Below are positions 19,313 to 35,726 of a stretch of DNA of 35,933 bases, in pieces. The translations under genes were made by a program, and so were the position numbers. Below the pieces are notes generated by a model. That model was not told the origin of the DNA. It saw only the letters and a list, made by a program, of their open reading frames with translations, and ran no database searches. The stretch is from Chloroflexota bacterium (GTDB taxonomy: Bacteria > Chloroflexota > Dormibacteria > Dormibacterales > Dormibacteraceae): assembly GCA_005879675.1 (NCBI GenBank), contig VBJE01000214.1, positions 1 through 35,933 of the forward strand, in the 5' to 3' direction. Numbering within the stretch: position 1 is the first letter of the stretch; each line of letters opens with the position of its first letter.

Positions 19313-19789
19313 ATGGCCATCCGCTCCGAGCTCGCGGGCTACAGCACAGCCGAAGCGCGGCGCGCCCTGGAGGGCCTGCCCCGGTGCGACTACGAGGTGG
19401 TGATCAAGCCGCTGCGCTATCGCTGGGGACCCCACCTGGCCGCCCGGTGCGAGTTCGACGACCGCCGGATCGTCCTCCAGGTCCCGATTCCGTTCCGCGC
19501 CTTCAAGGAGCCGGTCATCTATGCCGCGCGGCGCAAGCGCGGCGTGGGGATGCGTTTCGCCTGGGCTTCGGAGACAGTCCCATTCCGCAGCCGGCGCGAC
19601 GTGCTGAGGTTTCTCTACTGCCACGAGTGGATGCACTGGTACCTCCACGAGGTCCTCGGCAAGGGAGCCGCCGCCGAGACGGCATGCGATCGGTTTGCCC
19701 TCCGCAACTTTCGCCGCCGCTATGTCACGAGCGACGACGCCGACGCCGCGCTCAGGCGGCGGACGCTGAAGGCACGCGCGTCGGGCTGA
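19313..19789 (+). CDS. hypothetical protein with HExxH motif
   Basis: G/C-rich third positions throughout. The only recognisable motif is CHEWMHWYLHE (HExxH followed by HE). The 3' end overlaps the convergent DUF72 gene by 38 nt. Confidence 0.55.
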   Translation: MAIRSELAGYSTAEARRALEGLPRCDYEVVIKPLRYRWGPHLAARCEFDDRRIVLQVPIPFRAFKEPVIYAARRKRGVGMRFAWASETVPFRSRRDVLRFLYCHEWMHWYLHEVLGKGAAAETACDRFALRNFRRRYVTSDDADAALRRRTLKARASG

Positions 19790-20513
19790 GGCCGGCCGCG
19801 GCCGCGAGCTCCGCGAACGCGGTCGCGTCCCGGATCGCGTAACCCGCCGCGTCATTGTTGAAGTACACGTAGACGTCTTCGTTGCGCGACCACGTCTCCG
19901 CGACGCGCTCGACCCATCGCCGAAGGACGTCGCGCTCGTATCCCGGCGCGTGCGCTCCCTTGCCCTCGTGGAAGCGGACAAACCCCCAGCCGGCGGTCCG
20001 CCACATGGCCTGCTTCCTGCGCGGGGAGTCCGCAAGACACAGGGCGACGCCGCGCCGCTCGAGCACATCCGCGGTGTCGCGCACAAACCAGCTCTCGTCG
20101 CGGAACTCGACCGCGACGCGTAACGATGGGCCCAACAGCTCGAGCGTTCTATCGAGCCGCTCCAGGTTCGCGGAGAAACGCGGCGGCAGCTGGATGAGGA
20201 CCGGGCCGAGCTTCTTGCCCAACGCCCGGGCGCGGTCCATGAAGCGATCCACCGGCTCGGCCGGCTCGCGCAGACGCTTGAGGTGCGTGAGAAACCGGCT
20301 CATCTTCAGCGCGAAGATGAAGTCGGGCGGCGCCGCCTTCCTCCAGCTCTCGAACACCGACTTCTCGGGCAGGTTGTAGAAGGTGTTGTTGACCTCCACC
20401 GTCTGGAAGCGCTCGGCGAAGTACGGCAGCCACAGTCGCTGGGGAAGCTTCTCCGGATAGAAGACGCGCCTCCAGTGCGCGTACTGCCAACCCGAAGTGC
20501 CTACATACAGCAC
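19752..20513 (-). CDS. DUF72 (YecE-like) family protein
   Basis: YVGTSGWQYAHW..VFYP, FQTVEVNNTFY, LGPVLIQLPP and VYFNND are the DUF72 signature blocks. GTG start at 20513, 4 nt after the upstream stop. Confidence 0.85.
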   Translation of the reverse strand: MLYVGTSGWQYAHWRRVFYPEKLPQRLWLPYFAERFQTVEVNNTFYNLPEKSVFESWRKAAPPDFIFALKMSRFLTHLKRLREPAEPVDRFMDRARALGKKLGPVLIQLPPRFSANLERLDRTLELLGPSLRVAVEFRDESWFVRDTADVLERRGVALCLADSPRRKQAMWRTAGWGFVRFHEGKGAHAPGYERDVLRRWVERVAETWSRNEDVYVYFNNDAAGYAIRDATAFAELAAAAGLSPTRVPSASAA

Positions 20514-20517
20514 CGCT

Positions 20518-20895
20518 CTATGAAAACGCTTCGGCCTCGCTCTTGCGCAGCAGGACGATGACGGCGATGGGCAGCGCGACGTTGACCATCAGCGAAACGG
20601 GGCCACCGTTGAACCCGATCGGCAGCAGGAGCAGAACGGCCGAGCCGAACAGGCAGACGACCTCGAGCGCGACCGCCAGGCCGCGCGCGCGGCGCCGGCG
20701 CCACAGGACGCCGATGCCGACCAGCAAGGTTGCGAGCGCGAGCAGCATCGTGGCCACGGAGAGCGCGGCCATGAAGACCTCGCCGCCGAGCACGAAGGGC
20801 GCAGCGGAGACGCCGGCGATGAGCCAGAACAGGCCCTGCATCAGCAGGAGCACGAAGGCGGCCTCGGGGCGGGATGAGCTTTCATGCCTGATCAA
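20518..20895 (-). CDS. four-TM membrane protein, function unknown
   Basis: Four hydrophobic segments. It overlaps the upstream gene by 14 nt and lies in the same operon as the two-component system. Confidence 0.55.
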   Translation of the reverse strand: MIRHESSSRPEAAFVLLLMQGLFWLIAGVSAAPFVLGGEVFMAALSVATMLLALATLLVGIGVLWRRRRARGLAVALEVVCLFGSAVLLLLPIGFNGGPVSLMVNVALPIAVIVLLRKSEAEAFS

Positions 20896-21958
20896 TTTTT
20901 CTCACCAGCTTTTCATCGAAATCGACCGCGAACCGGCCGCTGGGGTTGTCGACGATCCAGACGTGCAGCATCGCCGGGGTGGTGATGGCTATCGCGCCGA
21001 GCGGGCACGTCGCGGTGGGCGTCATGAGGCTGAACTCGAAGCCCAGCGGCGTGAAGCAGATGTTTTCGTGCTGATGCCACGCCGTGACCGGGCCGCCGGG
21101 ATCGGGCCCGAACTCGCCGATGCGCTTCATCTGAAACATGGCGCCGAGGAGCTGAGGACCGTGCTTCGTGTTGGCGTAGACCAGGCCCTGAGGGTGCCTC
21201 GGATCCAGGACGTAGCCCGCGTCGACGTAGCGCTGGTTCATCCAGTGCGTGGACGGCATCGTCTGCGAGCCGCCGGGCCGGTACCCATCGGCCCATGCCT
21301 TGCGCCAGTCGCGGTACGGCGCGATCGCAGAGGACGTGTCGTTGTACAGCTTCTGGGCCGCGGCCTCCTGCCCGGGCGTTGCCACCTCGTTGGTCGCCTG
21401 CAGCAGCGCGCCGGCGTGCGCGTGCCGTTCGTCGGGCCGCGCGAGCGCGTCGATCCACACCACCGCGACCGTCATCACGGTCAGGACCGGGATGGCAACA
21501 CCCAGGGTGCGCCATCGCAGCTTTCGCCGCGACGTCTCGCCGCGAACCGGGACGAGGACGAGCGCCAACGCCAGGAGCTCGATGAGCTTGGTCGCGATCG
21601 CGACCTGGTCAGGACCATCGAAGCCGAGGACGATGTAGACGAGATATCCAAGCAGCGTGCCCGCGATCAGCGCCGCTGAGGCTGGCCGCCACCACCGCCA
21701 GGTGAACAGCTGCGAGAGGGCAAGGTAGGCGATCCCGTTGAGGACGAACAGCACGGCGGTGACGCCCTCTTCGAGGTGGGTCCATACAAGTCCGAGATGG
21801 ATGGCGCCTGAGGTCGCCATCAGGACGCTCGCCCCCAGCACCGTGCCAGGCACCCGGCTCGCCGCCGCGTGCCGGAACTTCAGGGCGAGAACGGCGAACG
21901 GTAAGGCGAGGAGACCCGCGTATAGACCGACTGCGTGATCCGGCGCGATGTCGAACAT
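20882..21958 (-). CDS. membrane protein with His/Trp-rich extracytoplasmic C-terminal domain, function unknown
   Basis: ORF 20882..22318 trimmed to ATG 21958 (MFDIAPDH), because the upstream part overlaps the kinase gene. About five TM segments are followed by a ~190-aa soluble domain carrying HAHAG, STHWMNQ, WHQHENICF and TATCPLG. Confidence 0.6.
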   Translation of the reverse strand: MFDIAPDHAVGLYAGLLALPFAVLALKFRHAAASRVPGTVLGASVLMATSGAIHLGLVWTHLEEGVTAVLFVLNGIAYLALSQLFTWRWWRPASAALIAGTLLGYLVYIVLGFDGPDQVAIATKLIELLALALVLVPVRGETSRRKLRWRTLGVAIPVLTVMTVAVVWIDALARPDERHAHAGALLQATNEVATPGQEAAAQKLYNDTSSAIAPYRDWRKAWADGYRPGGSQTMPSTHWMNQRYVDAGYVLDPRHPQGLVYANTKHGPQLLGAMFQMKRIGEFGPDPGGPVTAWHQHENICFTPLGFEFSLMTPTATCPLGAIAITTPAMLHVWIVDNPSGRFAVDFDEKLVRKIDQA

Positions 21959-21980
21959 GCCCCGAGCGTGGCGGCCCTGG

Positions 21981-23315
21981 TTAAGAAGGGCGTAAGAGCG
22001 GGAGGTCGACGAGGAATGCCGCGCCGCCGATTGTCGCGTCGCCGGCGACGATGCGGCCGCCGTGCTGCTCGGCGATCCAACGTGCGATCGACAGGCCGAG
22101 ACCGGCGTGCGAGCCCTCGCGCGACTGCTCCACGCGGTAGAACCGCTCGAAGATTCGCTCCCGGTCGCGAGCCGGAACGCCGGGACCGTCGTCGGCCACC
22201 GTGAGGCGAGCCCAGCCCGAGTCTGTGGACAGCCGGAGCTCGACGGTCGAAGCCGCGTGGCGAAACGCGTTGTCGAGGAGGATCCAGACGAGCTGGCGGA
22301 TCGCGTCCTCATCGCCATCCAGGGCGGCAGGTCCCGCGGCGACGTTCAGCTTCTGGCGCGGATGCAGGGCCGCCGCCTGCCGGCCGACCTCTTCCACCAA
22401 AGCCTTCAGTTCCACGGGCGCCCGGGCGAGGCGCGTTCCCGAGTCGGCGCGGGCGAGGGTCAGCAGGCGGTCGACGAGCCTGGCCATGCGGCCGCTCTCC
22501 TGGACGACGTCCGCGGCAGCGGCCTGGCGCACCTCCTCGCTGACCTGCTTCGCGGCCAGCAGACCCGCGTTGCCCTGGATGGTCGTGAGCGGCGTGCGCA
22601 GCTCGTGCGACGCATCGGAGACGAACTGCTTCTGCGACTCGTACGCCTCCTGAAGGCGGTTCAGCATGCCGTTGAAGCTCGACGCCAGCGCGGCCACCTC
22701 GTCGCGACTCCGCGGCACGGGCAGCCGCCGCGCGAAATCCCGTTTGCGGCCGATGTCTTCGGCGGCGACGGCGACGGCATGGAGCGGCGCGAGGGCGCGG
22801 CCCGCGACCAGCCACGAAGCGATGAGGGCCGCGATCAGCGCCGGGACCGCGGACACGACCAGGAAGACGACGACGCCCGACAGGTTCGACTGCGGCACGC
22901 GCGTGGACTGGCCGGCCACGATGTAGCCGCCCGCGTACGGAGACGCGTACATGCGCAGCGAGCCCTGGGTCGTGAAGGCTCCGTTGTGCCGCGTCGCGTC
23001 GTCGAGGAGGGTCCGCGGTGCCGAGGGCGGGCGGCCGTCGAGGGTGGCCGTCGTGTACAGGACGGATCCGTCGGACGCGAGCAGCTCGACGTAGAGGTCG
23101 TCGCTCTTGTTGAGATTCGCCGCGGCGACCGGGCTTTGCGACGGGGGAAGACCATGCAGCGCCGAGGCGGCGTCGCGCGCTCGCGCCCGCAGCGCGTCGT
23201 CCTGGTTGCTGACGACGCCGCGCGCCAGCAGCGCGTAAAGGAGCAATCCGAAAACCGCCAGCGCCAGGGCGACAACCCCCGCCCCGAAGAGGGCCAGCCG
23301 CAGGCGGAGCGGCAT
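21981..23315 (-). CDS. sensor histidine kinase (two TM, HAMP, HisKA, HATPase_c)
   Basis: H-box FVSDASHELRTPLTTIQG, an N-box (LDNAFRH), G1 (DDGPGV) and G2 (GLGLSIA). The start is immediately adjacent to the regulator stop (TAGATG). Confidence 0.9.
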   Translation of the reverse strand: MPLRLRLALFGAGVVALALAVFGLLLYALLARGVVSNQDDALRARARDAASALHGLPPSQSPVAAANLNKSDDLYVELLASDGSVLYTTATLDGRPPSAPRTLLDDATRHNGAFTTQGSLRMYASPYAGGYIVAGQSTRVPQSNLSGVVVFLVVSAVPALIAALIASWLVAGRALAPLHAVAVAAEDIGRKRDFARRLPVPRSRDEVAALASSFNGMLNRLQEAYESQKQFVSDASHELRTPLTTIQGNAGLLAAKQVSEEVRQAAAADVVQESGRMARLVDRLLTLARADSGTRLARAPVELKALVEEVGRQAAALHPRQKLNVAAGPAALDGDEDAIRQLVWILLDNAFRHAASTVELRLSTDSGWARLTVADDGPGVPARDRERIFERFYRVEQSREGSHAGLGLSIARWIAEQHGGRIVAGDATIGGAAFLVDLPLLRPS

Positions 23316-23972
23316 CTACTCGTGCAGCGAGTAGCCCGCGCCGCGCACGGTGTGGAGCAGCCGCGGTTCGCCCAGCTTCTGACGGAGATAGCCGACGTAG
23401 ACCGCGACCACGTTGTCGGACTCGGCCTCGCCGCTCCACACGGCATCGAGCAGCTGTTCCCGGGACAGGACCTGGCGCGGGTGGCGGAGGAAGTGCTCGA
23501 GCAGCTCGAACTCGGTCGCCGTCAGCTCGAGAGTGCGGTCGGAGCGCCACGCGGCGCGGCTCGCGGGCTCGAGCCGCACGTCGCCGAAGCGCAGGTGCTC
23601 GGAGGGTGCCGTCCGGCGCAGCAGGGCGCGAACGCGCGCGAGCAGCTCTTGATAGGCGAACGGCTTGACCAGGTAGTCATCGGCCCCCGAGTCGAGGCCT
23701 CGCACGCGCTCCTCGGTGCCGCCGAGCGCCGTGAGCAGGAGGATGGGCACCGAGCCGGTGGCGCGCAGGCGCTTGCACACCGCGATGCCGTCGAGGCCCG
23801 GCAGCATGATGTCGAGGACAACGAGGTCGAAAGGCCGCTTCTGAGCTCTGCGGAGGGCCTCGTTGCCGTCCCCGGCGACCTCGACGTCGTACGTCTCCGC
23901 GGCCAGGACACGATCCAGCGTCGCGGCGAGGCGCGGGTCGTCCTCCACGACCAGGATTCGCGAGCTGTCCAT
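23316..23972 (-). CDS. OmpR-family response regulator
   Basis: Receiver domain (ILVVEDD, LVVLDIMLPGLDG, DDYLVKPF) plus a winged-helix output domain (LTATEFELLEHFLRHPRQVLSREQLLDAVW...VYVGYLRQKL). Confidence 0.9.
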   Translation of the reverse strand: MDSSRILVVEDDPRLAATLDRVLAAETYDVEVAGDGNEALRRAQKRPFDLVVLDIMLPGLDGIAVCKRLRATGSVPILLLTALGGTEERVRGLDSGADDYLVKPFAYQELLARVRALLRRTAPSEHLRFGDVRLEPASRAAWRSDRTLELTATEFELLEHFLRHPRQVLSREQLLDAVWSGEAESDNVVAVYVGYLRQKLGEPRLLHTVRGAGYSLHE

Positions 23973-24078
23973 CGGGTCGATTTATAGACCTCGGGGTGTG
24001 AATTTCGTAAGAGATGTCGATTTCCGCCCCGCCGGTTCGTCGTCGTGGGTAGAAGCCAGACTCAAGGAGGAATCACAG

Positions 24079-24396
24079 ATGGCGAACTTCGTTCTTCTCT
24101 ACAGCGGCGGCAGCGCGGGCACGAACCCGGCGGAGCGCGAAAAGGTCATGCAGCAGTGGGGCGCATGGTTCGGCAAGCTCGGGGACAAGATCGTCGACGC
24201 GGGCAACCCGTTCGCCGAGCACGCCAAGAGCCTCTCGAACGGCTCGGTGCACGACGGCGCGGTCGGCACCCCGGCGACCGGCTACTCGATCCTGAAGGCC
24301 GACTCCCTCAACGCGGCGACCGAGCTCGCGAAGGGATGCCCGGTGCTGCAGTCGGGCGGCAAGATCACGGTCTACGAAGTCACCCCCGCGATGTAA
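24079..24396 (+). CDS. YciI-like (DGPF-type) small protein
   Basis: Tail of ORF 23863..24396 from ATG 24079, preceded by AAGGAGG. MANFVLLYSGG...MQQWGAWFGKLGDKIVDAGNPF...GYSILKADSLNAATELAKGCPVLQSGGKITVYE matches that family as I remember it. Confidence 0.65.
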   Translation: MANFVLLYSGGSAGTNPAEREKVMQQWGAWFGKLGDKIVDAGNPFAEHAKSLSNGSVHDGAVGTPATGYSILKADSLNAATELAKGCPVLQSGGKITVYEVTPAM

Positions 24397-24413
24397 TACA
24401 GGCTTAAGCCCCT

Positions 24414-24446
24414 CTCCCCAGCCCTCTCCCCGATGGGGAGAGGGAG
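24414..24446. repeat. REP-like palindromic element, copy 1
   Basis: ctccccagCCCTCTCCCCgatGGGGAGAGGGag, with a perfect 10-bp stem at 24422-24431 / 24435-24444. It is 32/33 identical to the reverse complement of 34557-34589. Confidence 0.8.
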
Positions 24447-24460
24447 CTCGCCGAGTCCAC

Positions 24461-24487
24461 AGCCCTCTCTCCGATGGGGAGAGCGAG
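24461..24487. repeat. REP-like palindromic element, degenerate copy 2
   Basis: agCCCTCTCTCCgatGGGGAGAGCGag. It has the same loop and arms as copy 1, with one G-U wobble pair and one mismatch in the stem. Confidence 0.6.
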
Positions 24488-24500
24488 CAATCGCTGAGGG

Positions 24501-25367
24501 TTACTCGACCCCGGTCAGGGTGACCCGCTTGGTGGCCGTCAGGCTGCCGCGGGCTCCTGACCGGTACGTGCCGGAGGTCGGCGCGACGTCCGAGTAGTCG
24601 GCGCCGACCGCGACCGTCACGTAGCCGAGCCCGCCATGGCTCGCGTGCGTGGGATCGAAGGCGTGGGCGACGGCGTCCCCCGTCCCGTCGCGAGTCGGCA
24701 TCACCACCTCGACCCACGCGTGCGTCCCGCCCTGGCCGAGCAGGTGGCCGGACACGTAGCGAGAAGGGAGGCCGCAGGCGCGGCAGAGCGCGAGCATCAC
24801 GTGCGCGTAGTCCTGGCAGACGCCGGCGCCCAGGGCGAGCGCCTCGGCGGCCGTGGTCCGGACGCCGGTCACCCCATGGCGGTAGGTCATCGACTGGTAG
24901 ACCCAGTCGTTGATCCGGTCGGCGAGCGGCAGCCCCCACTCCGAGACCTCGGACAGGTCGTCGGCCGCCCGCAGGATGGCGTCGTCGGCCTCGGTCAGCC
25001 GCGACGGCTGCAGGAGATACCCGTCGGCCAGCCAGCCGTCGGGAAGCCGGTTTGGCTGCGCCGCCCGCCGCTCGATGGAAACCTCGGCGACGAACTCGAT
25101 CACGTCCGGCACGCGCGGGGCGAAGACGTCGACGATCATGTTGCCGAAGCGATCTGTCCGGTTCTCCACCCGCGCGCCCTCCAGCGCCACCGAGACGTTG
25201 TGCCTGAGGCGCCGCTGGTCGCCGAAGCGCTCCGGGGGGATGACGATCAGGCGGTGGCTGAGGTCGCGGATGGGCTGCGGGTAGACGTAGCGAAATGTCT
25301 GCAGCAGCTGGTACGAGGCGCGGCGCGCCGAGCTCCAGTCGACCGATGCGGGGTCGATCGCCATCAC
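24501..25367 (-). CDS. transglutaminase-like family protein (Bact_transglu_N + TGase core)
   Basis: The N-terminal YQLLQTFRYVYPQP region is followed by a core with Cys (GVCQDYAH), His (THAWVEV) and Asp (FDPTH). GTGATG start region at 25367/25364 overlaps the upstream stop. Confidence 0.8.
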   Translation of the reverse strand: MMAIDPASVDWSSARRASYQLLQTFRYVYPQPIRDLSHRLIVIPPERFGDQRRLRHNVSVALEGARVENRTDRFGNMIVDVFAPRVPDVIEFVAEVSIERRAAQPNRLPDGWLADGYLLQPSRLTEADDAILRAADDLSEVSEWGLPLADRINDWVYQSMTYRHGVTGVRTTAAEALALGAGVCQDYAHVMLALCRACGLPSRYVSGHLLGQGGTHAWVEVVMPTRDGTGDAVAHAFDPTHASHGGLGYVTVAVGADYSDVAPTSGTYRSGARGSLTATKRVTLTGVE

Positions 25368-26239
25368 GATTTCGTCGGTGCGCCCTGCGCGCGCCCGGCG
25401 GATTCCATCGCTGCGCCCTGCGCGCGCTCCGCGGACTCTTTATCCCTGTCGGCCCAGACCACCATGGACTTGAACGTTGCAGGACCGAAAGTGGTCAGCA
25501 TCGCCACGTCCAGCGCATCCCGGCCGCGGCCGATAAGCACGCGTCCGACGCGCCGCGCGTTGTTGCGCGGGTCGAACGTCCACCAGCGGTCGCCGAGGTA
25601 GACCTCCATCCAGGCGGCGAAGTCCATCGGGCTGTCCGGCGGAGGCACGTACAGGTCGGGGAGGTAGCCGAACACGTAGCGAGCGGGGATGTTGAGCGCC
25701 CGGCAGAAGGTGATCGCCAGGTGAGCGAGGTCCCGGCAGACGCCCTTCCGCTGCTCCAGGACGTCGACGGCCGTGGTCAGCGGGTTGCTCGTCCCGTACT
25801 GGAACGTGATGTTGTCGTGCACCCAGTCGCAGACCGCCTGCACTCTCGCGCCGCTGGGGTCGGTCTGGCCGAAGAGCTCCCAGGCCATGCCCATGAGCTG
25901 GTCGGACAGGCAGTAGCGGCTGGGCAGGGTGAAGTGCAGCAGCTCGCCCGGGATGTCATCGACCGGGACCTGGGGCGCGGCCGAGCCGTCGAGGTCCGGC
26001 TCGTCAGGCGCGGAGACCACGGCGTCGTAACGCAGGGTCAGGGGGCCGGCCGGCATGACCAGGCGCTTGACGGGGTTGCCGTAGAAGTCGCTGTACTCGT
26101 CTATGGGAACCGGCGGCTGCGTCGTCCACGTCTCGGTGACGAGCTGGTGGGTGGAGTCGGAGCGAGGGCGGACCTGGACGGTCGCCACGGTGGGAGCGCT
26201 CACGTCGTACCTGAACTCACAGCCGACCCGTAAGTTGAT
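25364..26239 (-). CDS. transglutaminase-like family protein, His-less paralogue, non-canonical start
   Basis: C-terminal 291 aa of ORF 25364..27760: NLRVGCEFRYDV..., GVCRDLAH, MDFAAWMEVYLGDRWWTFDPRNN, RVLIGRGRDALDV. No ATG/GTG/TTG lies near the domain start, so I place the start provisionally at ATC 26239. Everything upstream in the tracked ORF is antisense to the ATP-grasp gene. Confidence 0.65.
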   Translation of the reverse strand: MNLRVGCEFRYDVSAPTVATVQVRPRSDSTHQLVTETWTTQPPVPIDEYSDFYGNPVKRLVMPAGPLTLRYDAVVSAPDEPDLDGSAAPQVPVDDIPGELLHFTLPSRYCLSDQLMGMAWELFGQTDPSGARVQAVCDWVHDNITFQYGTSNPLTTAVDVLEQRKGVCRDLAHLAITFCRALNIPARYVFGYLPDLYVPPPDSPMDFAAWMEVYLGDRWWTFDPRNNARRVGRVLIGRGRDALDVAMLTTFGPATFKSMVVWADRDKESAERAQGAAMESAGRAQGAPTKS

Positions 26240-26251
26240 CGTCTTCTCAGG

Positions 26252-27748
26252 TTGCGGGATGGCGGAGACACTATAGCGGTGGCTTTCGGGAATCTTGACG
26301 CCAACTACAAGGTCAACGGGTTCTATGACGAGATGCTTGCGGGCCCTGGCCGGCCCCGCCCTCCTTACCGTCGACTCTACGAGGAGCTGAACCGGCTCGG
26401 CCCGGTCGAGCTTGGGCGCCGGTGGGCGCTGGCGATGGAGATGTTCCGCAACCACGGCATCACCTTCGCCGTGTACCCGGACGCCCAGGGGACCGAAAAG
26501 GTGTTTCCGTTCGACGTCATCCCCCGCCTGATCGAGGCGAACACATGGCGCCGGCTCGAGCGTGGCCTGACCCAGCGGCTGCGGGCCCTCAACCTGTTCC
26601 TGGACGACGTCTACGGTCGCAAGCTGATCCTGAAACAGCGCGCGATCCCGCCCGAGATCCTGCTCAGCAGCTCGCTGTACATGCGCGAGATCGAGGGCCT
26701 CGGCGTGCCCCACGGCATCCACTGCCACATCGCCGGGATCGACCTCGTTCGGGACGAGAAGGGCGAGTTCTTCGTCCTCGAGGACAACCTGCGCACGCCG
26801 TCGGGCGCGTCGTACGTGCAGGCCAATCGTTACGTGATGAAGCGCATCCTGCCCGACCTGTTCGCCGGCTATCCCGTGCGGCCGGTCGAGGGCTACGTGC
26901 ACGAGCTGCTGCGGTACCTCCGCTGGCTCGCGCCCGCGGGCGTCGACGACCCCACCGTGGTCCTCCTGACCCCGGGCATCAACAACGCGGCGTACTACGA
27001 GCACCTCTACCTGGCCAAGCAGATGGGCGTCGAGCTGGTCGAGGGCAGCGACCTGGTCGTCGACGACGACAAGGTCTTCATGCGCACGACCCACGGCCTG
27101 CGGCCTGTGCACGTCATCTACCGCCGGATCGACGACGAGTGGCTGGACCCGATCTTTGGGCGCCAGGAGTCCCTGGTCGGCGTGGCCGGGCTGGTCAACG
27201 CCCACCGGGCAGGCAACGTGGCGCTCGCGAACGCGCTCGGCAACGGCGTCGCCGACGACAAGGCGGTCTACGCGTTCGTGCCCAAGGTCATCCGCTACTA
27301 CCTGGACGAGGACCCGATTCTGCCCAACGTCGAGACGTACCTGTGCGCCGTCGAGTCCGAGCGGAAGCACGTGCTCGAGCACCTCGACAGCCTGGTGGTG
27401 AAGACCACGGACGCCTCGGGCGGCTACGGAATGCTCATCGGGCCGGCGTCGACGCGAGAGGAGCGCGAAGAGTTTCGGCGCCGCATCGTCGCCAGGCCGC
27501 GCTCGTTCATCGCCCAGCCCGTGGTCGGCCTGTCGGTGCAGCCGGTGCTCGACGGCGACAGGCTGCGGCCCGGGCACCAGGACCTGAGGCCGTTCGTCCT
27601 CACGGGTCCAGACGTGTACGTCACGCCTGGCGGCCTGACGCGGGTCGCGCTGAAACCAGGCTCCCTGATCGTCAACAGCTCCCAGGGCGGCGGCAGCCGC
27701 GACACCTGGGTCATCGCCGACGACGGCGCGGAGAACGCCGATGCTTAG
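26252..27748 (+). CDS. circularly permuted type-2 ATP-grasp protein (DUF404/DUF407-type)
   Basis: FYDEM...RPPYRRLYEELNRL, FVLEDNLRTPSGASY, AGNVALANALGNGVADDKAVYAFVPKVIRYYLDEDPILPNVETY and GGYGMLIGP match the family as I remember it. The start is TTG 26252 or GTG 26279. Confidence 0.8.
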   Translation: MRDGGDTIAVAFGNLDANYKVNGFYDEMLAGPGRPRPPYRRLYEELNRLGPVELGRRWALAMEMFRNHGITFAVYPDAQGTEKVFPFDVIPRLIEANTWRRLERGLTQRLRALNLFLDDVYGRKLILKQRAIPPEILLSSSLYMREIEGLGVPHGIHCHIAGIDLVRDEKGEFFVLEDNLRTPSGASYVQANRYVMKRILPDLFAGYPVRPVEGYVHELLRYLRWLAPAGVDDPTVVLLTPGINNAAYYEHLYLAKQMGVELVEGSDLVVDDDKVFMRTTHGLRPVHVIYRRIDDEWLDPIFGRQESLVGVAGLVNAHRAGNVALANALGNGVADDKAVYAFVPKVIRYYLDEDPILPNVETYLCAVESERKHVLEHLDSLVVKTTDASGGYGMLIGPASTREEREEFRRRIVARPRSFIAQPVVGLSVQPVLDGDRLRPGHQDLRPFVLTGPDVYVTPGGLTRVALKPGSLIVNSSQGGGSRDTWVIADDGAENADA

Positions 27749-28688
27749 CCGCGCCGCCACCTCCCTGGCCCTGCTCGGCCGTCACCTCGAGCGCGCCGAC
27801 CACCTCGCCCGCATCCTGGGAGTCCATGTCGCGCTCTCGCTCGACCGCACCGATGAGCCAGGCACCGAGTTCTGGGTGCGGTTCATGGAGCTCGCGGGTT
27901 GGCGCGGCAGCGACACCGGCCGGCGGGATCAGGCGGTCGAGATGGTCGTCGCGGGCACCCTCGGGCCTTCGGTCCGCTCGAGCATCGCGTCGGCCAGGCT
28001 CGCCGCGCAGGCCGTGCGCCCTTCGCTGCCAAGCGAGCTCTACGAGCAGGTCAACGCGCTTCACTGGCGCGTGCAGGAGGCGGTCTGGCAGCCCGACCTG
28101 TACCGGTTTCTCATGGACGTGCAGATGAGCATCCGGCTGGTCGACGGCCTGCTCGAGGACACGATGTTCCACGACGAGGCGCGCGACTTCGTGCGCCTGG
28201 GCAAGTTCGTCGAGCGGTCCGCGAACGTGACCGCTGTCGTGACGCACAAGGCCGCCGAGCTCGCGGACACGCCCGAGGACGCGCTCGAGTGGACGGCGGT
28301 GCTCAAGTCGTGCTTCGCGTTCGAGTCGTACCAAACGCGTTATGGCGGCGGCGTGACGGAAGAGCGCGTGATCGAGTGCCTCCTCCTCGACGGCGCGCTC
28401 CCTCGCTCGGCCAGGTTCGCGGCGTCAAGCGCGCTGGAGGCCGTCGCCCGCATCGAGGGCAACGCGCGGCGTTCCAAGCCTCTGCGCCTGTTGATCCGGC
28501 TCAACGGCATGTACCAGCAGGCCAACACGCAGTCGATCACGGAGCAGCCACTCGATTTCGAGGCGGAGTGCCGGACGATCCTGCGCATGCTCGAGATCGC
28601 GCTGCGGGAGACCTACTTCCACCCGAGCAAGGTCCCGGCCGCCGTGGCCGGCGAGGAGGGGCGCGGCATGCCGCAGCAGCAGCAGTGA
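27741..28688 (+). CDS. alpha-E domain protein (DUF403-type)
   Basis: The N-terminus MLSRAATSLALLGRHLERADHLARIL is the alpha-E signature. It overlaps the ATP-grasp gene by 8 nt. Confidence 0.8.
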   Translation: MLSRAATSLALLGRHLERADHLARILGVHVALSLDRTDEPGTEFWVRFMELAGWRGSDTGRRDQAVEMVVAGTLGPSVRSSIASARLAAQAVRPSLPSELYEQVNALHWRVQEAVWQPDLYRFLMDVQMSIRLVDGLLEDTMFHDEARDFVRLGKFVERSANVTAVVTHKAAELADTPEDALEWTAVLKSCFAFESYQTRYGGGVTEERVIECLLLDGALPRSARFAASSALEAVARIEGNARRSKPLRLLIRLNGMYQQANTQSITEQPLDFEAECRTILRMLEIALRETYFHPSKVPAAVAGEEGRGMPQQQQ

Positions 28689-29527
28689 AGCTCGAGATCG
28701 TCCACAGCACGCGGTACCGCTACACGGCGCCGATCGCGGAGACGGTCATGGAGGTGCGGCTGCGGCCGATGGACGGGAACGGCCAGCGCTGCCTGGAATT
28801 CCGCCTCGAGCTCAGCCACGGCGTCAAGGCGCGCGCTTACGTGGACGGGTTCGGCAACCACGTCCACTACTTCAACCTGGTGAGGCCACACGCCGGGTTG
28901 AGCGTGATCAGCCGTTCCACCGTCGAGACCGGGCTCGCCCCGGACGAGGACCCGGGCGAGGAGCTCGTGCAGGACTTTCTCCGTTTTCGGTCGCCGGTCA
29001 AGGACGTCGACGGCGTGCGCGAGCTTGCGCGCCGTCACGCCATCGCCGACGCCGGCTCACCCGCCGCGGCCGAGCAGGCGCTCGACGAGCTGACGGCGAC
29101 GATCAGCCGCGAATTCACGTATGACCGCACCGTGACCAACGTCTACAGCGCGGTCGACGACGTGCTCGCATTGCGAGCGGGCGTGTGCCAGGACTTCGCG
29201 CACCTGTTCATCGCCGTCGCGCGGGCGATGGGCGTCCCCGCGCGCTACGTCAGCGGCTACATCCACTTCCCGGGCGACAAGACGCTGACGTCGGCGTCGC
29301 ACGCCTGGGCCGAGGCCTGGGTGGCCGGACGGGGATGGATCGGGTTCGACGCCACTCACCCGGTCCGGACGACGCCGCACCACGTGCGCCTGGCGGTGGG
29401 CCGCGACTACACCGACGCCGCGCCGACGCGCGGGATCTATGTGGGCTCGGCGGGGAGCTCGATGTCGATAAGCGTGAGGACGCGCACGGTGGGCGCCGGG
29501 CACGCGGAGGGCGCCGATTCGACCTAG
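28685..29527 (+). CDS. transglutaminase-like family protein (Bact_transglu_N + TGase core)
   Basis: GTG 28685 overlaps the alpha-E stop (GTGA). VKLEIVHSTRYRYTAP, GVCQDFAH, SHAWAEAW and FDATHP give a complete Cys/His/Asp triad. The 5' part of tracked ORF 27899..29527 is a shadow frame. Confidence 0.85.
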   Translation: MKLEIVHSTRYRYTAPIAETVMEVRLRPMDGNGQRCLEFRLELSHGVKARAYVDGFGNHVHYFNLVRPHAGLSVISRSTVETGLAPDEDPGEELVQDFLRFRSPVKDVDGVRELARRHAIADAGSPAAAEQALDELTATISREFTYDRTVTNVYSAVDDVLALRAGVCQDFAHLFIAVARAMGVPARYVSGYIHFPGDKTLTSASHAWAEAWVAGRGWIGFDATHPVRTTPHHVRLAVGRDYTDAAPTRGIYVGSAGSSMSISVRTRTVGAGHAEGADST

Positions 29528-30183
29528 AAGCGTTTGCCCCGGACGTGCTCGATGTCGAACTTCGCGGTGTCCGCGATCAGCATCACCGCCATCACGCCGG
29601 CCTCGACCGGGTCGGTGACGACCACGTCCGCGGCGTCAGGCACGGAGCCCGCCATGTTCGTGCACAGGACGAGAATCCCCGACTCGCGGATCTCCCGCAC
29701 GGCGCGTGTGATCTCCCCGCCCATGATCGCTCCCGCGAGGACGAGCGCCCGCGCGCGGTGGAGGCGGGCGACAGCGCGAACGGCGTCGGCCAGCTGCTCC
29801 TCGCCCACCAGCGGGATGGTGTCGACCGAGATGCGCTCGCCGCGGATGTTGTGGCGATCCGCCTCCGAGATTGCGCCCTGAGCGACCATGCCGACCTGCG
29901 CGCCGCCCCCGATCACGATCACGCGCTTGCCGTAGATCGTCTGGAAGGTGGGCACGACGCCGACGTGCGTCACGCCGGGGACTCCCTCCAGGTCCGCGAT
30001 CAACCGGTGCTCGTCGGGGGCGCCCGACACCTCGAGCTGCAGGTCGGCGAGCGCCTCGCGTCGAGCCCCGCCCGCGACATAGCTGATGTTCGCGTTGTGG
30101 CGAAGGATCACGTCCGTGATCCTGTGGAGCACGCCGGGCTCATCCCGACACTCGACCAGGAGCCCGATCGTCTCCGCCGCCAT
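29524..30183 (-). CDS. ACT-domain protein with C-terminal uncharacterised alpha/beta domain (DUF5612-like)
   Basis: ACT-like N-terminus (IGLLVECRDEPGVLHRITDVILRHNANI), then a VIVIGGGAQVG Rossmann-like segment. Its stop overlaps the convergent TGase stop (CTAG). Confidence 0.6.
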   Translation of the reverse strand: MAAETIGLLVECRDEPGVLHRITDVILRHNANISYVAGGARREALADLQLEVSGAPDEHRLIADLEGVPGVTHVGVVPTFQTIYGKRVIVIGGGAQVGMVAQGAISEADRHNIRGERISVDTIPLVGEEQLADAVRAVARLHRARALVLAGAIMGGEITRAVREIRESGILVLCTNMAGSVPDAADVVVTDPVEAGVMAVMLIADTAKFDIEHVRGKRF

Positions 30184-30310
30184 GGCGGAGAACGATAGTC
30201 AGAATCAGGCCTCGGCCGCGCCCCTGTCGCCGCCGCACCAAACAGCGGCCAAGGGATTGGAGGCCGGAACCATGCGCGCGACGGCCGCGATGCCTTAGGC
30301 TTCCGGCCAC

Positions 30311-30367
30311 ATGCGCAACAGCCGCGCGATCGCGATCGAGATTACCCGGGGAGGTCCCCCGACTTAG
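30311..30367 (+). other. candidate Ile-rich leader peptide (18 aa) of the citramalate synthase leader
   Basis: ATG CGC AAC AGC CGC GCG ATC GCG ATC GAG ATT ACC CGG GGA GGT CCC CCG ACT TAG gives MRNSRAIAIEITRGGPPT. It has three Ile codons within five positions and ends inside the 5' arm of the antiterminator. There is no clear SD. A second mini-ORF, MRATAAMP (30272..30298), has a good GGAGG. Confidence 0.3.
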
Positions 30368-30391
30368 CGCGCGGCGCTGATGTCGGTTGGG

Positions 30392-30424
30392 CCTCCCGGC
30401 CAGAGAAGGTCGGGAGGTTTTTTT
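30392..30424 (+). terminator. attenuator terminator immediately upstream of cimA
   Basis: Stem cctcccggc (30392-30400) / ggtcgggagg (30408-30417, with one G-U pair), then seven T (30418-24), then ATG 30425. The cimA Shine-Dalgarno GGGAGG forms the 3' arm. Confidence 0.6.
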
Positions 30425-31997
<1,573 letters not shown>

Positions 31998-32020
<23 letters not shown>

Positions 32021-34550
32021 GGAGTCCGCCCGGCAGGAGATCCCGCCCGAGCTGAGGCGCGATGTGCGCCTGCTCGGCGACATGCTGGGCAGGGTCATCG
32101 CGGACTACGGGGGCGCGACGCTCCTGCGCGACGTCGAGCGGCTGCGCAGCCTCGTCATTCGCGCCCGCGACGACGACCGCTTCGAGCGCGAGGCCGAGAA
32201 GCTGGTCGCCTCCTGGAAGCTCGAACGCGCCGAGCTGGTGGCGCGCGCGTTCACCTGCTACTTCCATCTCGCGAACCTCGCCGAGGAGCACCACCGCGCG
32301 CGCGTCATCCGCGAGCGGGACCGTGGCCCCGAGCCTCTGCCCGAGTCCATCGCGGCGACCGTGGGCACGCTGCAGCCTCGTCTCGGCCGCAAGCGCCTGA
32401 CGGCACTGGCCGCTGGCCTCGAGGTGCACCCTGTCTTCACCGCCCACCCGACCGAGTCGCGCAGGCGCGCGGTCGTGACCGCCATCCGGCGCGTGGGCGA
32501 GCAGCTCGAGCGGCTGGACGACCCGAGGACGTCGGACACGGAGCGCGCCGACGCCGAACGGCGTCTCGGCGAAGAGATCGACACCCTCTGGCGGACGGCC
32601 CAGGTGCGCACCGCGCACGTGCGTCCGCTCGACGAGGTGCGGTCGTTCATGGCGGTGTTCGACGAGACGCTGTTCCGCATGGCGCCCGAGGTTCTTCGCG
32701 CCTTCGACACCGCGCTTGGCGAAAGCGTCCCGCCGTTCCTCCGGTTCGGCAGCTGGATCGGCGGCGACCGGGACGGCAATCCGTCGATCACGGCCGAGGT
32801 CACCGCGGAGACGATGGCGATCCACTCCGAGCACGCCCTGCTGGCGCTCGAGACCGTCGCCGATCGAGTGGGCCGCTCGCTCACGGTCGACCTCGAGACG
32901 ACTCCGCCTTCACCCGCGCTGCGGCGGCGGCTGCCGCGGCCGGCGGCCGAGCCGCACCGCGAGTTCCTCCTCCACGTGGCGCGCCGCCTGCGCGCGACGC
33001 GGCTCGTCGAGCGCGAGCTCGCCTACGGGTCCGCGCGCGACCTTGTCGAGGACCTGCGCTGCGTGCGCGACTCGCTCGACGCCGCCGGGGCTGCACGCCT
33101 TGCCTCAGGCGAGGTGCAGCAGCTCGTGTGGCAGGCCGAGACGTTCGGGTTCCACCTGGCCGAGCTCGAGGTGCGGCAGCACAGCGGCGTGCACGAGCAC
33201 GCGCTCGGCGAGGTTCGCGGACGGGGCAAGCTTTCGGCGCAGTCGCGCGAGGCGCTGGACACCCTCGGCGTGATGGCGAAGCTCCAGTCGCGATACGGCG
33301 CCGAGAGCTGCCGGCGCTACGTCGTCAGCTTCACCCGCGACGCGCGCGACGTGGCCGCGGTTTACGAGCTGGCCAAGCACGCGACAGGCGGGCGCGCCCC
33401 AGTCCTCGACGTCGTGCCGCTCTTCGAGACTCTCGACGATCTCTCCCGCGCGACCGCGGTCATGGACGAGGTGGTCGAGCTCGGCCCGGTGCGCAAGCGT
33501 CTCGCGGCCAACAATCGGGCGGTCGAGGTGATGCTCGGCTACTCGGACTCGGCGAAGGAGATCGGTCCGCTGTCGGCGACGCTCGCCCTGCATGACGCGC
33601 AGGCGGCGCTGACCGCGTGGGCGAAGAAGCGGGGTTTGCGACTGACCCTGTTCCACGGCCGCGGCGGAGCTCTCGGCCGGGGCGGCGGCCCGGCCAACAG
33701 GGCAGTCAGGGCCCAGGCGCCAGGCTCTGTCGCGGGACGCTTCAAGGTCACCGAGCAGGGAGAGGTCATCTTCGCGCGCTATGGCAACCGCGCCATCGCC
33801 CGCCGCCACATCGAGCAGGTCACGTCGGCGGTGCTGGAGGCGTCGGCGCCGGGCGGCTCGCGTCGCGACCCCGCCCACTCGTTTCGCGAGCTGGCCGCGG
33901 CGATCGACGGCCCATCGCGCGCCGCGTACCGCCGGCTCGTCGAGGCGGGAGGGTTCGAAAGGTGGTTCCTGCAGGTCAGCCCGATCGAAGAGCTGGGCAA
34001 GCTGCGGATCGCATCGCGGCCGCAGCGCCGGGCGGGCAGCCGGAGCCTCGAGGACCTGCGCGCGATCCCGTGGGTGTTCGCGTGGTCGCAGATGCGCCTC
34101 AACCTGCCCGGCTGGTACGGAATCGGCAGCGGGCTCGCTGCCGCGGCGCTGCCGGAGCTCCGGCGCGCCTACTCGGAATGGCCGCTGTTCAACGTGATGC
34201 TCGACAACGCCGAGATGAGCCTCGCCAAGACCGACCGCCGGATCGCCGAGCGCTACATGGCGCTGGGCGACGGGCCCGAGCTCGCGGCGATGGTGCTGGA
34301 GGAGTACGAGCTGACGATGGAGCGGGTGCTCGCGGTCACCGGCCACCGCCGCCTGCTCGAGGACCGGCGGGTGCTGTCATGGGCGATCGAGCTCCGCAAT
34401 CCTTACGTCGACGCGCTCTCGCACCTCCAGCTGCGTGCGCTGCGCGCGTTGCGCAACCGCAGGACTCCGCGCGCCGACCGCAAGCGGGCCGAGCGGGTGT
34501 TTCAGCTCAGCGTGAACGGGGTCGCGGCCGGACTGCAGAACACGGGGTAG
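31998..34550 (+). CDS. ppc: phosphoenolpyruvate carboxylase
   Basis: LRRDVRLLGDMLG, VFTAHPTE, GYSDSAKE, FHGRGGALGRGGGP and a C-terminal LQNTG. GTG 31998 overlaps the cimA 3' end by 23 nt. Confidence 0.9.
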
Positions 34551-34556
34551 GAATGA

Positions 34557-34589
34557 CTCCCTCTCCCCCTCGGGGAGAGGGCTGGGGAG
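34557..34589. repeat. REP-like palindromic element, copy 3 (inverted relative to copy 1)
   Basis: ctCCCTCTCCCCctcGGGGAGAGGGctggggag. Its reverse complement differs from 24414-24446 at a single loop base. The flank motif aggggcttaa (34641-50) matches ttaagcccct at 24404-13. Confidence 0.8.
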
Positions 34590-34650
34590 CAATCAGATGG
34601 CGAAGCGAGCTTGCGAGCCGTCCTTATCGCGCTTGCGCGCAGGGGCTTAA

Positions 34651-35610
34651 TCAGGCAGCGCCGAGATGATGCAACGTCGGCAGCTCCGTGGCCAGGAGCT
34701 CGACCGTCTCCGGGTCCCACTGGGTGCCCGAGCCGGCGCGGAGCACCGCCAGGGCCTCCTCGGTCGACCGGCGCGTGCGGTAAGGACGGTCGTTGACCAG
34801 CGCGTCGAACGCGTCGCAGACGGACACGATCCGCGCGACGCGTGGAATCTCCCGCGCCTTCAGCCCGTCCGGGTAGCCCGACCCGTCGTAGCGCTCGTGG
34901 TGGTGACGGATGATCGGCAGCAGGCCCGACGTCGAATGCAGCGGACGGACGATGCTCTCACCGATCTCGACATGCGCCTGCATAAGCGGCAGCTCGATCG
35001 CGTTGAGCGGTCCGGGCTTGTGGAGGATCGAGTCCGAGACGCCGATCTTGCCGATGTCGTGGATGATCCCGCCCCGGTACAGGGTGTCGAGCGTCGGCTC
35101 CGAGAGCCCGAGCTTCTGACCGAGCAGGCGCGCCGACTCGCCGACACGGTGCGTGTGGCGCTCGGTGAAGGAGTCCTTGGCTTCGACCGCGGTGGCGAGC
35201 GAGAAGATCACATGCTCGGCGCTGTCGAGGGTGTTGTAGAGCTCTTTCAGCCGCAGGGCCGAGCGGACCCGCGCGATCAGCTCCGCACCCTCGACCGGCT
35301 TGGCCATGAAGTCGTCGGCGCCGGCTTCGAGCGCCATCACCCGGTGCGTCGTCTGGCTGAGGCCGGTGATCATCACCACCGGCAGCAGGCGTCCGCGCGG
35401 CATCGCCTTGATCCGGCGGCACACCTCGTAGCCGTCCATGCGCGGCATGCGGACATCGAGCAGGACGAGGTCGGGCGCCTGGGCCTCGATCATCTCCAGG
35501 GCGGTGACACCGTCCCCCGCTTGCTGCACGTCGACGTCGATCGTGGAGAGGTAGATGCGGATCATCTCGCGGTTCGGCGCGCTGTCGTCCACGACCAGGA
35601 CTACCGGCAT
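34651..35610 (-). CDS. response regulator with HD-GYP phosphodiesterase output domain
   Basis: ORF 34651..35634 trimmed to ATG 35610, preceded by GGGGAG. Receiver domain (VLVVDD, LVLLDVRMPRMDG, DDFMAKP) plus HD-GYP motifs (IIHDIGKIGV, HHERYDGSGYPDG). Confidence 0.85.
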   Translation of the reverse strand: MPVVLVVDDSAPNREMIRIYLSTIDVDVQQAGDGVTALEMIEAQAPDLVLLDVRMPRMDGYEVCRRIKAMPRGRLLPVVMITGLSQTTHRVMALEAGADDFMAKPVEGAELIARVRSALRLKELYNTLDSAEHVIFSLATAVEAKDSFTERHTHRVGESARLLGQKLGLSEPTLDTLYRGGIIHDIGKIGVSDSILHKPGPLNAIELPLMQAHVEIGESIVRPLHSTSGLLPIIRHHHERYDGSGYPDGLKAREIPRVARIVSVCDAFDALVNDRPYRTRRSTEEALAVLRAGSGTQWDPETVELLATELPTLHHLGAA

Positions 35611-35726
35611 CAGATCAACTCCCCCTCGAGCCACCGATTGGGCTGGGCCACCTGGCCCCTATTGTTAGCTCAGGAGGGTGGCGACTCGCAAGTAGAAACG
35701 CCTGGCGATCGCCCGCCAACCGCTCG

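Follow-up and report, generated by a model that had tools for sequence, protein, structure and literature searches.

Systems that combine a circularly permuted (CP) ATP-grasp ligase, an Alpha-E protein and a transglutaminase-like (TGase-like) protein are very widespread in bacteria and have had no known substrate since they were predicted in 2008-2009; the Rv2409c-Rv2411c genes of Mycobacterium tuberculosis presumably encode such a system. The window analysed here, which is the whole stretch of 35,933 nucleotides (nt) of contig VBJE01000214.1 (about 69% G+C) from a soil-dwelling member of Candidatus Dormibacterota, contained a five-gene locus of this kind. An ATP-grasp gene (P1), an Alpha-E gene (P2) and a core TGase-like gene (P3) are translationally coupled on the plus strand and face a divergent, likewise coupled pair of TGase-like genes (P4 and P5). 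The locus is a recurrent variant of the known predicted system and not a new kind of system. The P4-P5 pair was found linked to a CP-ATP-grasp gene in three phyla, and the catalytic His present in P3 and P5 was replaced in P4.

The triad was noticed alongside the proteasome beta-like protein Anbu by Valas and Bourne. As restated in PMC3495828, Iyer and colleagues regarded it as a peptide-ligase system in which a transglutaminase-like (TGL) peptidase reverses tags added by the ATP-grasp protein, and inactive TGL domains were proposed as peptide binders (PMC3495828). Phosphate was released from ATP by the Yersinia orthologue of P1 (PMC6376114), and two Anbu structure papers reported neither an Anbu activity nor a complex with operon partners. 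The Burkholderia cenocepacia cluster I35_5080-5083 (DUF404/407, DUF403, TGase and large TGase) was controlled through NtrC/sigma-54, which means induction when nitrogen is limiting (PMC5491218), and Anbu was up-regulated in nitrogen-limited Pseudomonas putida (PMC5666114). A 2026 preprint reported that M. tuberculosis Rv2411c and Rv2567 made no gamma-aminobutyric acid (GABA)-trehalose, which is one unrelated reaction. A preliminary description of the window had called the core triad biochemically undefined, and the searchable papers agreed: ATP hydrolysis by one ATP-grasp protein was the only activity demonstrated, and no paper defining a substrate was found among them. No paper on the P4-P5 module or on the His loss was found either, and such a neighbourhood may already be depicted by Iyer et al. 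2009.

Pfam hidden Markov models assigned the five genes to the families that had been proposed for them. P1 (searched as 26252-27748, plus strand) gave full-length profile matches to CP_ATPgrasp_2 (PF14403; 5e-157, 523 bits) and CP_ATPgrasp_1 (PF04174; 1.9e-141, 471 bits), and it matched PDB 3N6X, a 'putative glutathionylspermidine synthase', with E = 3e-153. P2 matched Alpha-E (PF04168; 1.8e-54, 186 bits) across the whole profile (positions 1-294 of 294), and no solved structure was found for it by sequence search. Both Bact_transglu_N (1.2e-21) and Transglut_core (1.2e-23) were above the cut-off in P3, and P5 (24501-25367, minus strand) matched the same two families (1.3e-7 and 2e-19, respectively). 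P4 (searched as 25364-26239, minus strand) matched Transglut_core (1e-24, 87 bits), while its Bact_transglu_N score of just 20.8 bits lay below the 27-bit cut-off. NCBIfam produced no matches among the nine proteins searched.

A frame plot of G+C at third codon positions placed the coding signal in precisely the proposed frames and strands of all five genes (24501-29527), in agreement with the preliminary description. Its three overlapping junctions could also be read directly in the sequence. P1 and P2 overlap by 8 nt, ATGCTTAG, at 27741-27748; P2 and P3 share GTGA at 28685-28688; and P4 and P5 share GTGA at 25367-25364 on the minus strand, where an in-frame ATG follows directly. The features are collected in Table 1, with the starts of P1 and P4 as revised below.

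Table 1. Features of the five-gene locus and its divergent spacer (positions in the window)
Feature	Positions	Strand	Evidence and remarks
P5, TGase-like protein (Bact_transglu_N + Transglut_core)	24501..25367	-	Pfam; Cys-His-Asp triad intact; second gene of the divergent pair
P4, 3ISR-like TGase-like protein; catalytic His replaced by Ala (DFAAW), Cys and Asp present	25364..26242	-	Pfam; PDB 3ISR; AlphaFold2 model; start probably non-canonical
Divergent intergenic spacer, about 36 bp	26243..26278	no strand	Alignment A4, eight Dormibacterota-type loci
P1, CP-ATP-grasp amidoligase; 489 aa when read from GTG 26279, the most likely start	26279..27748	+	Pfam CP_ATPgrasp_2/1; PDB 3N6X; start-codon conservation
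P2, Alpha-E protein	27741..28688	+	Pfam Alpha-E, full length; start overlaps the P1 end by 8 nt
P3, core TGase-like protein (Bact_transglu_N + Transglut_core), intact Cys-His-Asp triad	28685..29527	+	Pfam; GTGA overlap with P2

The closest described counterpart of P1-P2-P3 is the COG2308-COG2307-COG1305 operon, the core of the 'Anbu operon' (PMC3495828, PMC5666114, PMC3235984), which has the same families in the same order; in the window these genes are coupled and the P3 triad is intact. The locus contains the ligase, an Alpha-E gene immediately downstream and a TGase-like protein with its catalytic triad. Unlike the classic proteobacterial and cyanobacterial operons (e.g. Sinorhizobium, which carries a plain triad), it has the extra divergent P4-P5 pair, and no gene for Anbu, a frequent but not obligatory member, was present among the flanking genes scanned (19752-35658); the same flanks contained no further ATP-grasp or TGase gene. 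More than one TGase-like protein per core is likewise found in Burkholderia cenocepacia I35_5080-5083 and on Skermanella pTT6-1 (a 1108-aa TGase with ATP-grasp and Alpha-E). In these two, however, the additional TGase consists of one large multidomain protein, which in Skermanella stands instead of the pair, whereas the window encodes two small proteins that belong to different orthologous groups and of which one lacks the catalytic His. Since the related locus L001 conserves the five genes while its genes beyond P5 differ, the five behave as a single unit; L001 also keeps the neighbouring ACT/DUF5612 gene.

P3, P4 and P5 were mutually 27-29% identical, and each was 40-60% identical to its own orthologues in other phyla. 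Because their mutual identity is below that to these orthologues, the three are old paralogues that fall into three orthologous groups and do not stem from a recent doubling, as the earlier word 'doubled' for the TGase pair might suggest. The catalytic Cys (GVCxD) and Asp (FDP/FDA) were present in all three proteins, and the His (HAW) in P3 and P5, while P4 has Ala at this position (DFAAW; alignment A1). The Cys-His-Asp triad is thus complete in P3 and P5 and incomplete in P4. All three residues were kept in 29 of 29 P3 orthologues and in 30 of 32 P5 orthologues. The DFAAW motif was common to 120 of 120 close P4 homologues, the closest of which (78-90% identity) belonged to metagenome-assembled genomes (MAGs) of Candidatus Dormibacterota, some under the older label 'Chloroflexi bacterium'.

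The P4 subfamily comprised 484 clusters (50% identity, E < 1e-30), and an unbiased sample of it had A, S, C, H or N at the His position. Among 82 P4 orthologues from genome loci, a sample partly biased by the search patterns, this position was A in 57, C in 13, H in 8, S in 3 and V in 1, with Cys and Asp present in 82 of 82. A second near-invariant Cys, an Asp and an Arg occurred within the motif PSRYCxSD, which was specific to the subfamily (alignment A2). P4 matched PDB 3ISR, a putative cysteine protease of Cytophaga hutchinsonii from structural genomics and the only solved relative of the subfamily, with a phmmer E-value of 4.5e-43 over residues 4-249. The AlphaFold2 (AF2) model of P4 had a predicted local distance difference test (pLDDT) score of 85, and Foldseek aligned it to 3ISR with E = 1e-30 and a template modelling (TM) score of 0.82. 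P4 therefore belongs to the 3ISR-like subfamily by full-length sequence and fold and by the PSRYCxSD motif, and it shares SRYCxSD and the catalytic Cys and Asp with 3ISR itself. In contrast, 3ISR retains the His (DFHACFE), where P4 and the 120 close Dormibacterota homologues have Ala (DFAAW). The distribution shows that the catalytic His has been lost repeatedly in a large 3ISR-like TGase subfamily, with Cys and Asp retained, and P4 is probably a pseudoenzyme or an altered enzyme. In two rare metagenomic fusions, a P4-type TGase domain was joined either to a pair of GGACT/AIG2 gamma-glutamyl cyclotransferase domains (P0148) or to the class-II glutamine amidotransferase domain GATase_4 (P0124). 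A further protein, P0150, was considered as a true P4+P5 fusion and rejected, as it looks like a frameshifted P4+P5 read-through.

Conservation of the gene neighbourhood was examined by a profile-guided scan with one genome per species, which gave 80 loci from other species with 10-kb flanks, in which relatives of P1-P5 were located by tblastn. The locus search was run with the narrower alignment A3, as A2 (29 diverse P4 relatives) was too divergent. The loci spanned Dormibacterota, Chloroflexota, Actinomycetota, Eremiobacterota, Planctomycetota, Proteobacteria, Myxococcota, Acidobacteriota and Leptospira. Linkage was defined as a CP-ATP-grasp gene within 3 kb, and 52 loci were fully flanked (at least 4 kb on both sides). 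Across all 80 loci, P4-P5 was linked to the ligase in 17 and unlinked in 13, many of which ended at contig ends; P4 alone lay beside the ligase in 6 and had no ligase nearby in 44. The fully flanked loci comprised 11 with P4-P5 and ligase, 2 with P4-P5 without it, 5 with P4 alone and ligase, and 34 with P4 alone without it. Ligase linkage was thus 11/13 for P4-P5 against 5/39 for P4 without P5 (Fisher p = 4e-6, and 3e-4 after collapsing close relatives), so that the divergent pair co-occurs with the ATP-grasp core rather than being randomly distributed, as the preliminary description had expected of a genuine association.

The variant, defined by a P4-type gene with a P5-type gene immediately after it and a CP-ATP-grasp gene no more than 3 kb away, was found outside the source lineage in at least three gene orders and three phyla. 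The divergent order [P3-P2-P1]<>[P4-P5] occurred in Dormibacterota (L004-L009), Ktedonobacteraceae (L011), Jiangellaceae (L043) and Mycobacteriales (L050), and the co-directional order P4-P5-P1-P2-P3 in Limnocylindria (L032), Chloroflexota (L057) and Actinomycetes (L042, from a MAG). In L027 (7517-9852), L029 and L047, which were checked with Pfam, the ligase was followed directly by the TGase-like gene. Because these loci lack an Alpha-E gene and still face a P4-P5 pair, Alpha-E is dispensable in some versions. Between lineages, Alpha-E was much more divergent (27-33% identity) than P1 or P4 (about 50-60%). P4 alone was attached to the triad in L035, L063, L077 and one Deinococcus plasmid. 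Contigs labelled Candidatus Sulfotelmatobacter (L004), Verrucomicrobiia (L007) and Candidatus Micrarchaeaceae archaeon (L047) also carried the P4-P5/ATP-grasp locus. L004 and L007 were 81-88% identical to the window and L047 had the arrangement of Dormibacterota L027 and L029; the odd taxon labels are probably MAG binning errors.

Among plasmids there was little overlap between the genera with P1 and the genera with P4, and P5 gave no plasmid match at 1e-20. Methylocapsa plasmid L087 and Roseovarius plasmid L089 had two to three clustered 'transglutaminase family protein' genes, one of them P4-type, and no ATP-grasp gene, which suggests that TGase-like paralogues tend to act together, as sets, where the ligase system is absent too. 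All-ORF (open reading frame) clustering, which was confounded by conserved high-GC shadow ORFs, gave no recurrent partner around solitary P4 in more than 8 of 81 loci outside TGase/triad clusters, which single-linkage had merged with such ORFs. Since P4-type genes were solitary in 44 of the 80 loci and on most plasmids, P4 clearly has ligase-independent roles. The conclusion from these neighbourhoods is that P4 alone is a free-standing family, and that the P4-P5 pair truly belongs to the ATP-grasp core as an accessory module in Terrabacteria lineages of soil.

The reading that is somewhat favoured is that the five-gene locus is a cytosolic variant of the CP-ATP-grasp/Alpha-E/TGase-like system that would write and erase an amide in an ATP-dependent manner, with P4-P5 as a reader/eraser add-on. 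P1, aided by the Alpha-E protein P2, would convert a substrate with ATP into an acyl-phosphate and then form an amide bond on an acceptor, most likely of the peptide or gamma-glutamyl type. The papain-fold proteins P3 (core) and P5 (accessory) would work on that amide as thiol amidases or transamidases and would trim the attached group, transfer it or take it off. P4, which keeps its Cys and Asp but has lost the general-base His, may partner the translationally coupled P5 without hydrolytic activity, by binding substrate or by regulation, and together they may form an add-on module through which the specificity of the core write/erase cycle is broadened or gated. The earlier idea of a 'scaffold subunit' gains support from this loss, and that of an expanded ATP-grasp/Alpha-E/TGase system is upheld at the level of comparative genomics by the linkage across three phyla. 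A similar write/erase logic is found in the glutathionylspermidine synthetase/amidase of E. coli, where a synthetase related to the P1 ATP-grasp clade is joined to a papain-like thiol amidase hydrolysing the same amide. In E. coli a single protein carries both activities, with a CHAP domain as the amidase, whereas the window has separate TGase-like proteins and an Alpha-E protein. The RimK/RimB and RloABC systems of Pseudomonas offer a functional analogy with an ATP-grasp glutamate ligase and a counteracting peptidase, RloB being an inactive transglutaminase that cooperates genetically with an ATP-grasp enzyme and a peptidase. These systems differ in having an ATP-grasp of the RimK type, without circular permutation, a retropepsin as the peptidase and, in RloB, a seven-transmembrane protein, unlike the soluble P4; no homology is claimed.

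The nature of the acceptor separates this reading from a small-molecule cycle, in which P1 would be a glutathionylspermidine-synthetase-like or gamma-glutamyl-amine ligase (nitrogen scavenging), P3 and P5 would be the matching amidases, and a gamma-glutamyl or thiol-amine conjugate would be made and broken. This is possible, though doubtful. The deposited name of 3N6X, which is nearest to P1 among solved structures, the control by nitrogen limitation in B. cenocepacia (PMC5491218) and P. putida (PMC5666114), and the P4-domain fusions to two GGACT domains and to GATase_4 are weak hints of it. The 3N6X name, however, is an unverified structural-genomics label, and both fusions are single metagenomic proteins, with no significant GGACT or GATase_4 neighbour in 86 loci and the window. 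Three separate amidase-like proteins also seem too many for one small-molecule amide, and the lack of GABA-trehalose formation by Rv2411c and Rv2567, a lone negative, points the same way. The evidence leans slightly towards a protein or peptide acceptor, as in the Iyer-Aravind model, over a small amine or metabolite.

Several observations weigh against the write/erase reading with a P4-P5 add-on. The cluster contained no candidate tag peptide or target gene; most triads elsewhere lacked the P4-P5 pair; P4 stood without a nearby ligase in the 44 loci given above and was solitary on most plasmids carrying it, including proteobacterial ones; and in at least two fully flanked loci (L015 and L016) the 10 kb around P4-P5 contained no ATP-grasp gene. 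The last two of these, together with the Methylocapsa and Roseovarius plasmids, where P4 homologues accompany other TGase genes, and the largely disjoint plasmid genera with P1 and with P4, would suit a P4-P5 pair that works independently as a TGase-like protease or cross-linking module, adjoining the ligase through shared regulation or lineage-specific synteny and not directly coupled to it biochemically. Such independence is quite unlikely, given that P4-P5 adjoins a CP-ATP-grasp gene in 11 of the 13 informative loci, and does so in three phyla and in no fewer than three gene orders, some of them co-directional and operon-like; chance adjacency to a gene of one to two copies is roughly guessed to be well under 1%. 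The strict conservation of Cys and Asp in P4 also speaks against a purely binding role and argues that the protein may still be catalytic through an altered mechanism. P4 would then be an enzyme using the invariant Cys and Asp, perhaps with SRYCxSD, in a His-independent reaction, for example as a thioester acyl carrier or transamidase. The drift of the His position (A/S/C/V/H) beside Cys and Asp in 82 of 82 aligned orthologues and the near-invariant Cys, Asp and Arg of PSRYCxSD are consistent with this, but conservation is also expected of structural residues, and an active P4 is considered unlikely. A specific form, in which P4 would be a Cys-only acyl acceptor that takes the P1/P2-activated carboxylate as a thioester, left unhydrolysed because the His is absent, with transfer to an amine by P5 and removal by P3 in a cascade resembling E1, E2, E3 and deconjugase, is highly improbable.

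The value of the locus lies mainly in the better means it gives of approaching the long-standing substrate question, and in the His loss across a large TGase-like subfamily. It offers a conserved accessory pair that goes along with the ligase, a natural contrast of pseudoenzyme (P4) and enzyme (P5 and P3) usable for substrate trapping, and cultivable Actinomycetota relatives with co-directional operons for genetics. The variant is present in many public genomes, where it is annotated merely as 'transglutaminase family protein', and the loss of His with Cys and Asp kept in the 3ISR-like subfamily bears on the annotation of 'transglutaminase-like cysteine proteases'.

The coordinates of the preliminary description held for the genes and their frames and had to be revised for two starts, those of P4 (26239, an ATC codon) and P1 (TTG 26252). 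Position 26239 is no canonical start, and the first canonical one, GTG 26203, lies downstream of the region encoding the conserved N-terminal strand of the P4 family, INLRVGCEFRYDV, which was predicted by AF2 as part of the fold (strand 2-13, pLDDT about 90). The codon at 26242-26240 was ACG in the window and five other relatives, GTG in L006 and ATG in L009 (alignment A4, eight related loci). Because this strand precedes GTG 26203 and two relatives have GTG or ATG at the ACG codon position, P4 probably begins at a non-canonical codon, ACG 26242 or ATC 26239. The N-termini given to the P4 family by public gene callers were inconsistent (254-338 aa). For the ATP-grasp gene, GTG 26279 (complement CAC) was invariant across the eight relatives and TTG 26252 lay within the unconserved spacer (alignment A4), so that GTG 26279 is most likely the start.

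With the corrected starts the divergent spacer is just about 36 bp, and the promoter of one operon must therefore overlap the start of the other. An invariant TATAGT box was found on the minus strand at 26275-26270, 3 nt from the P1 GTG start (alignment A4), and a purine-rich GAGAAG at 26248-26243 directly before the P4 start. A scan for sigma-70 consensus promoters gave no match, and the terminator scan gave nothing informative. We infer a promoter role of the TATAGT box from its conservation; abutting the ATP-grasp start, the box fits co-regulation of both operons from a single tight control region.

The flanking genes between 19752 and 35658 were ordinary and comprised, according to Pfam, those for an OmpR-type two-component system, a small YCII-like ORF, the ACT/DUF5612 protein, a LeuA- or citramalate-synthase-like protein, phosphoenolpyruvate (PEP) carboxylase and a response-regulator-HD protein. 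The YCII-like ORF (about 24079-24396, plus strand) was rejected as a sixth component, being syntenic in close Dormibacterota relatives only and located elsewhere in L011. The ACT + DUF5612 gene (29524-30183, minus strand) is convergent on P3, with a 4-nt overlap of the stop regions; its synteny was seen in L001, L004, L005, L008 and L009 and did not extend beyond close Dormibacterota relatives. Compared with L001, four genes are inserted at 20518-23972 between the YCII-like ORF and a DUF72 gene. They comprise a response regulator, a HAMP-HisKA kinase and two further ORFs, one of 478 aa that weakly matches DUF7475 and one of 125 aa that has no family; L004 and L005 carry the insertion too. On the other side, the LeuA/citramalate-synthase-like gene (30380-32020) overlaps the start of the PEP carboxylase ORF (31998-34550) by 23 nt, and the PEP carboxylase match came in two stretches, the ORF having 850 aa against a profile of 919 positions.

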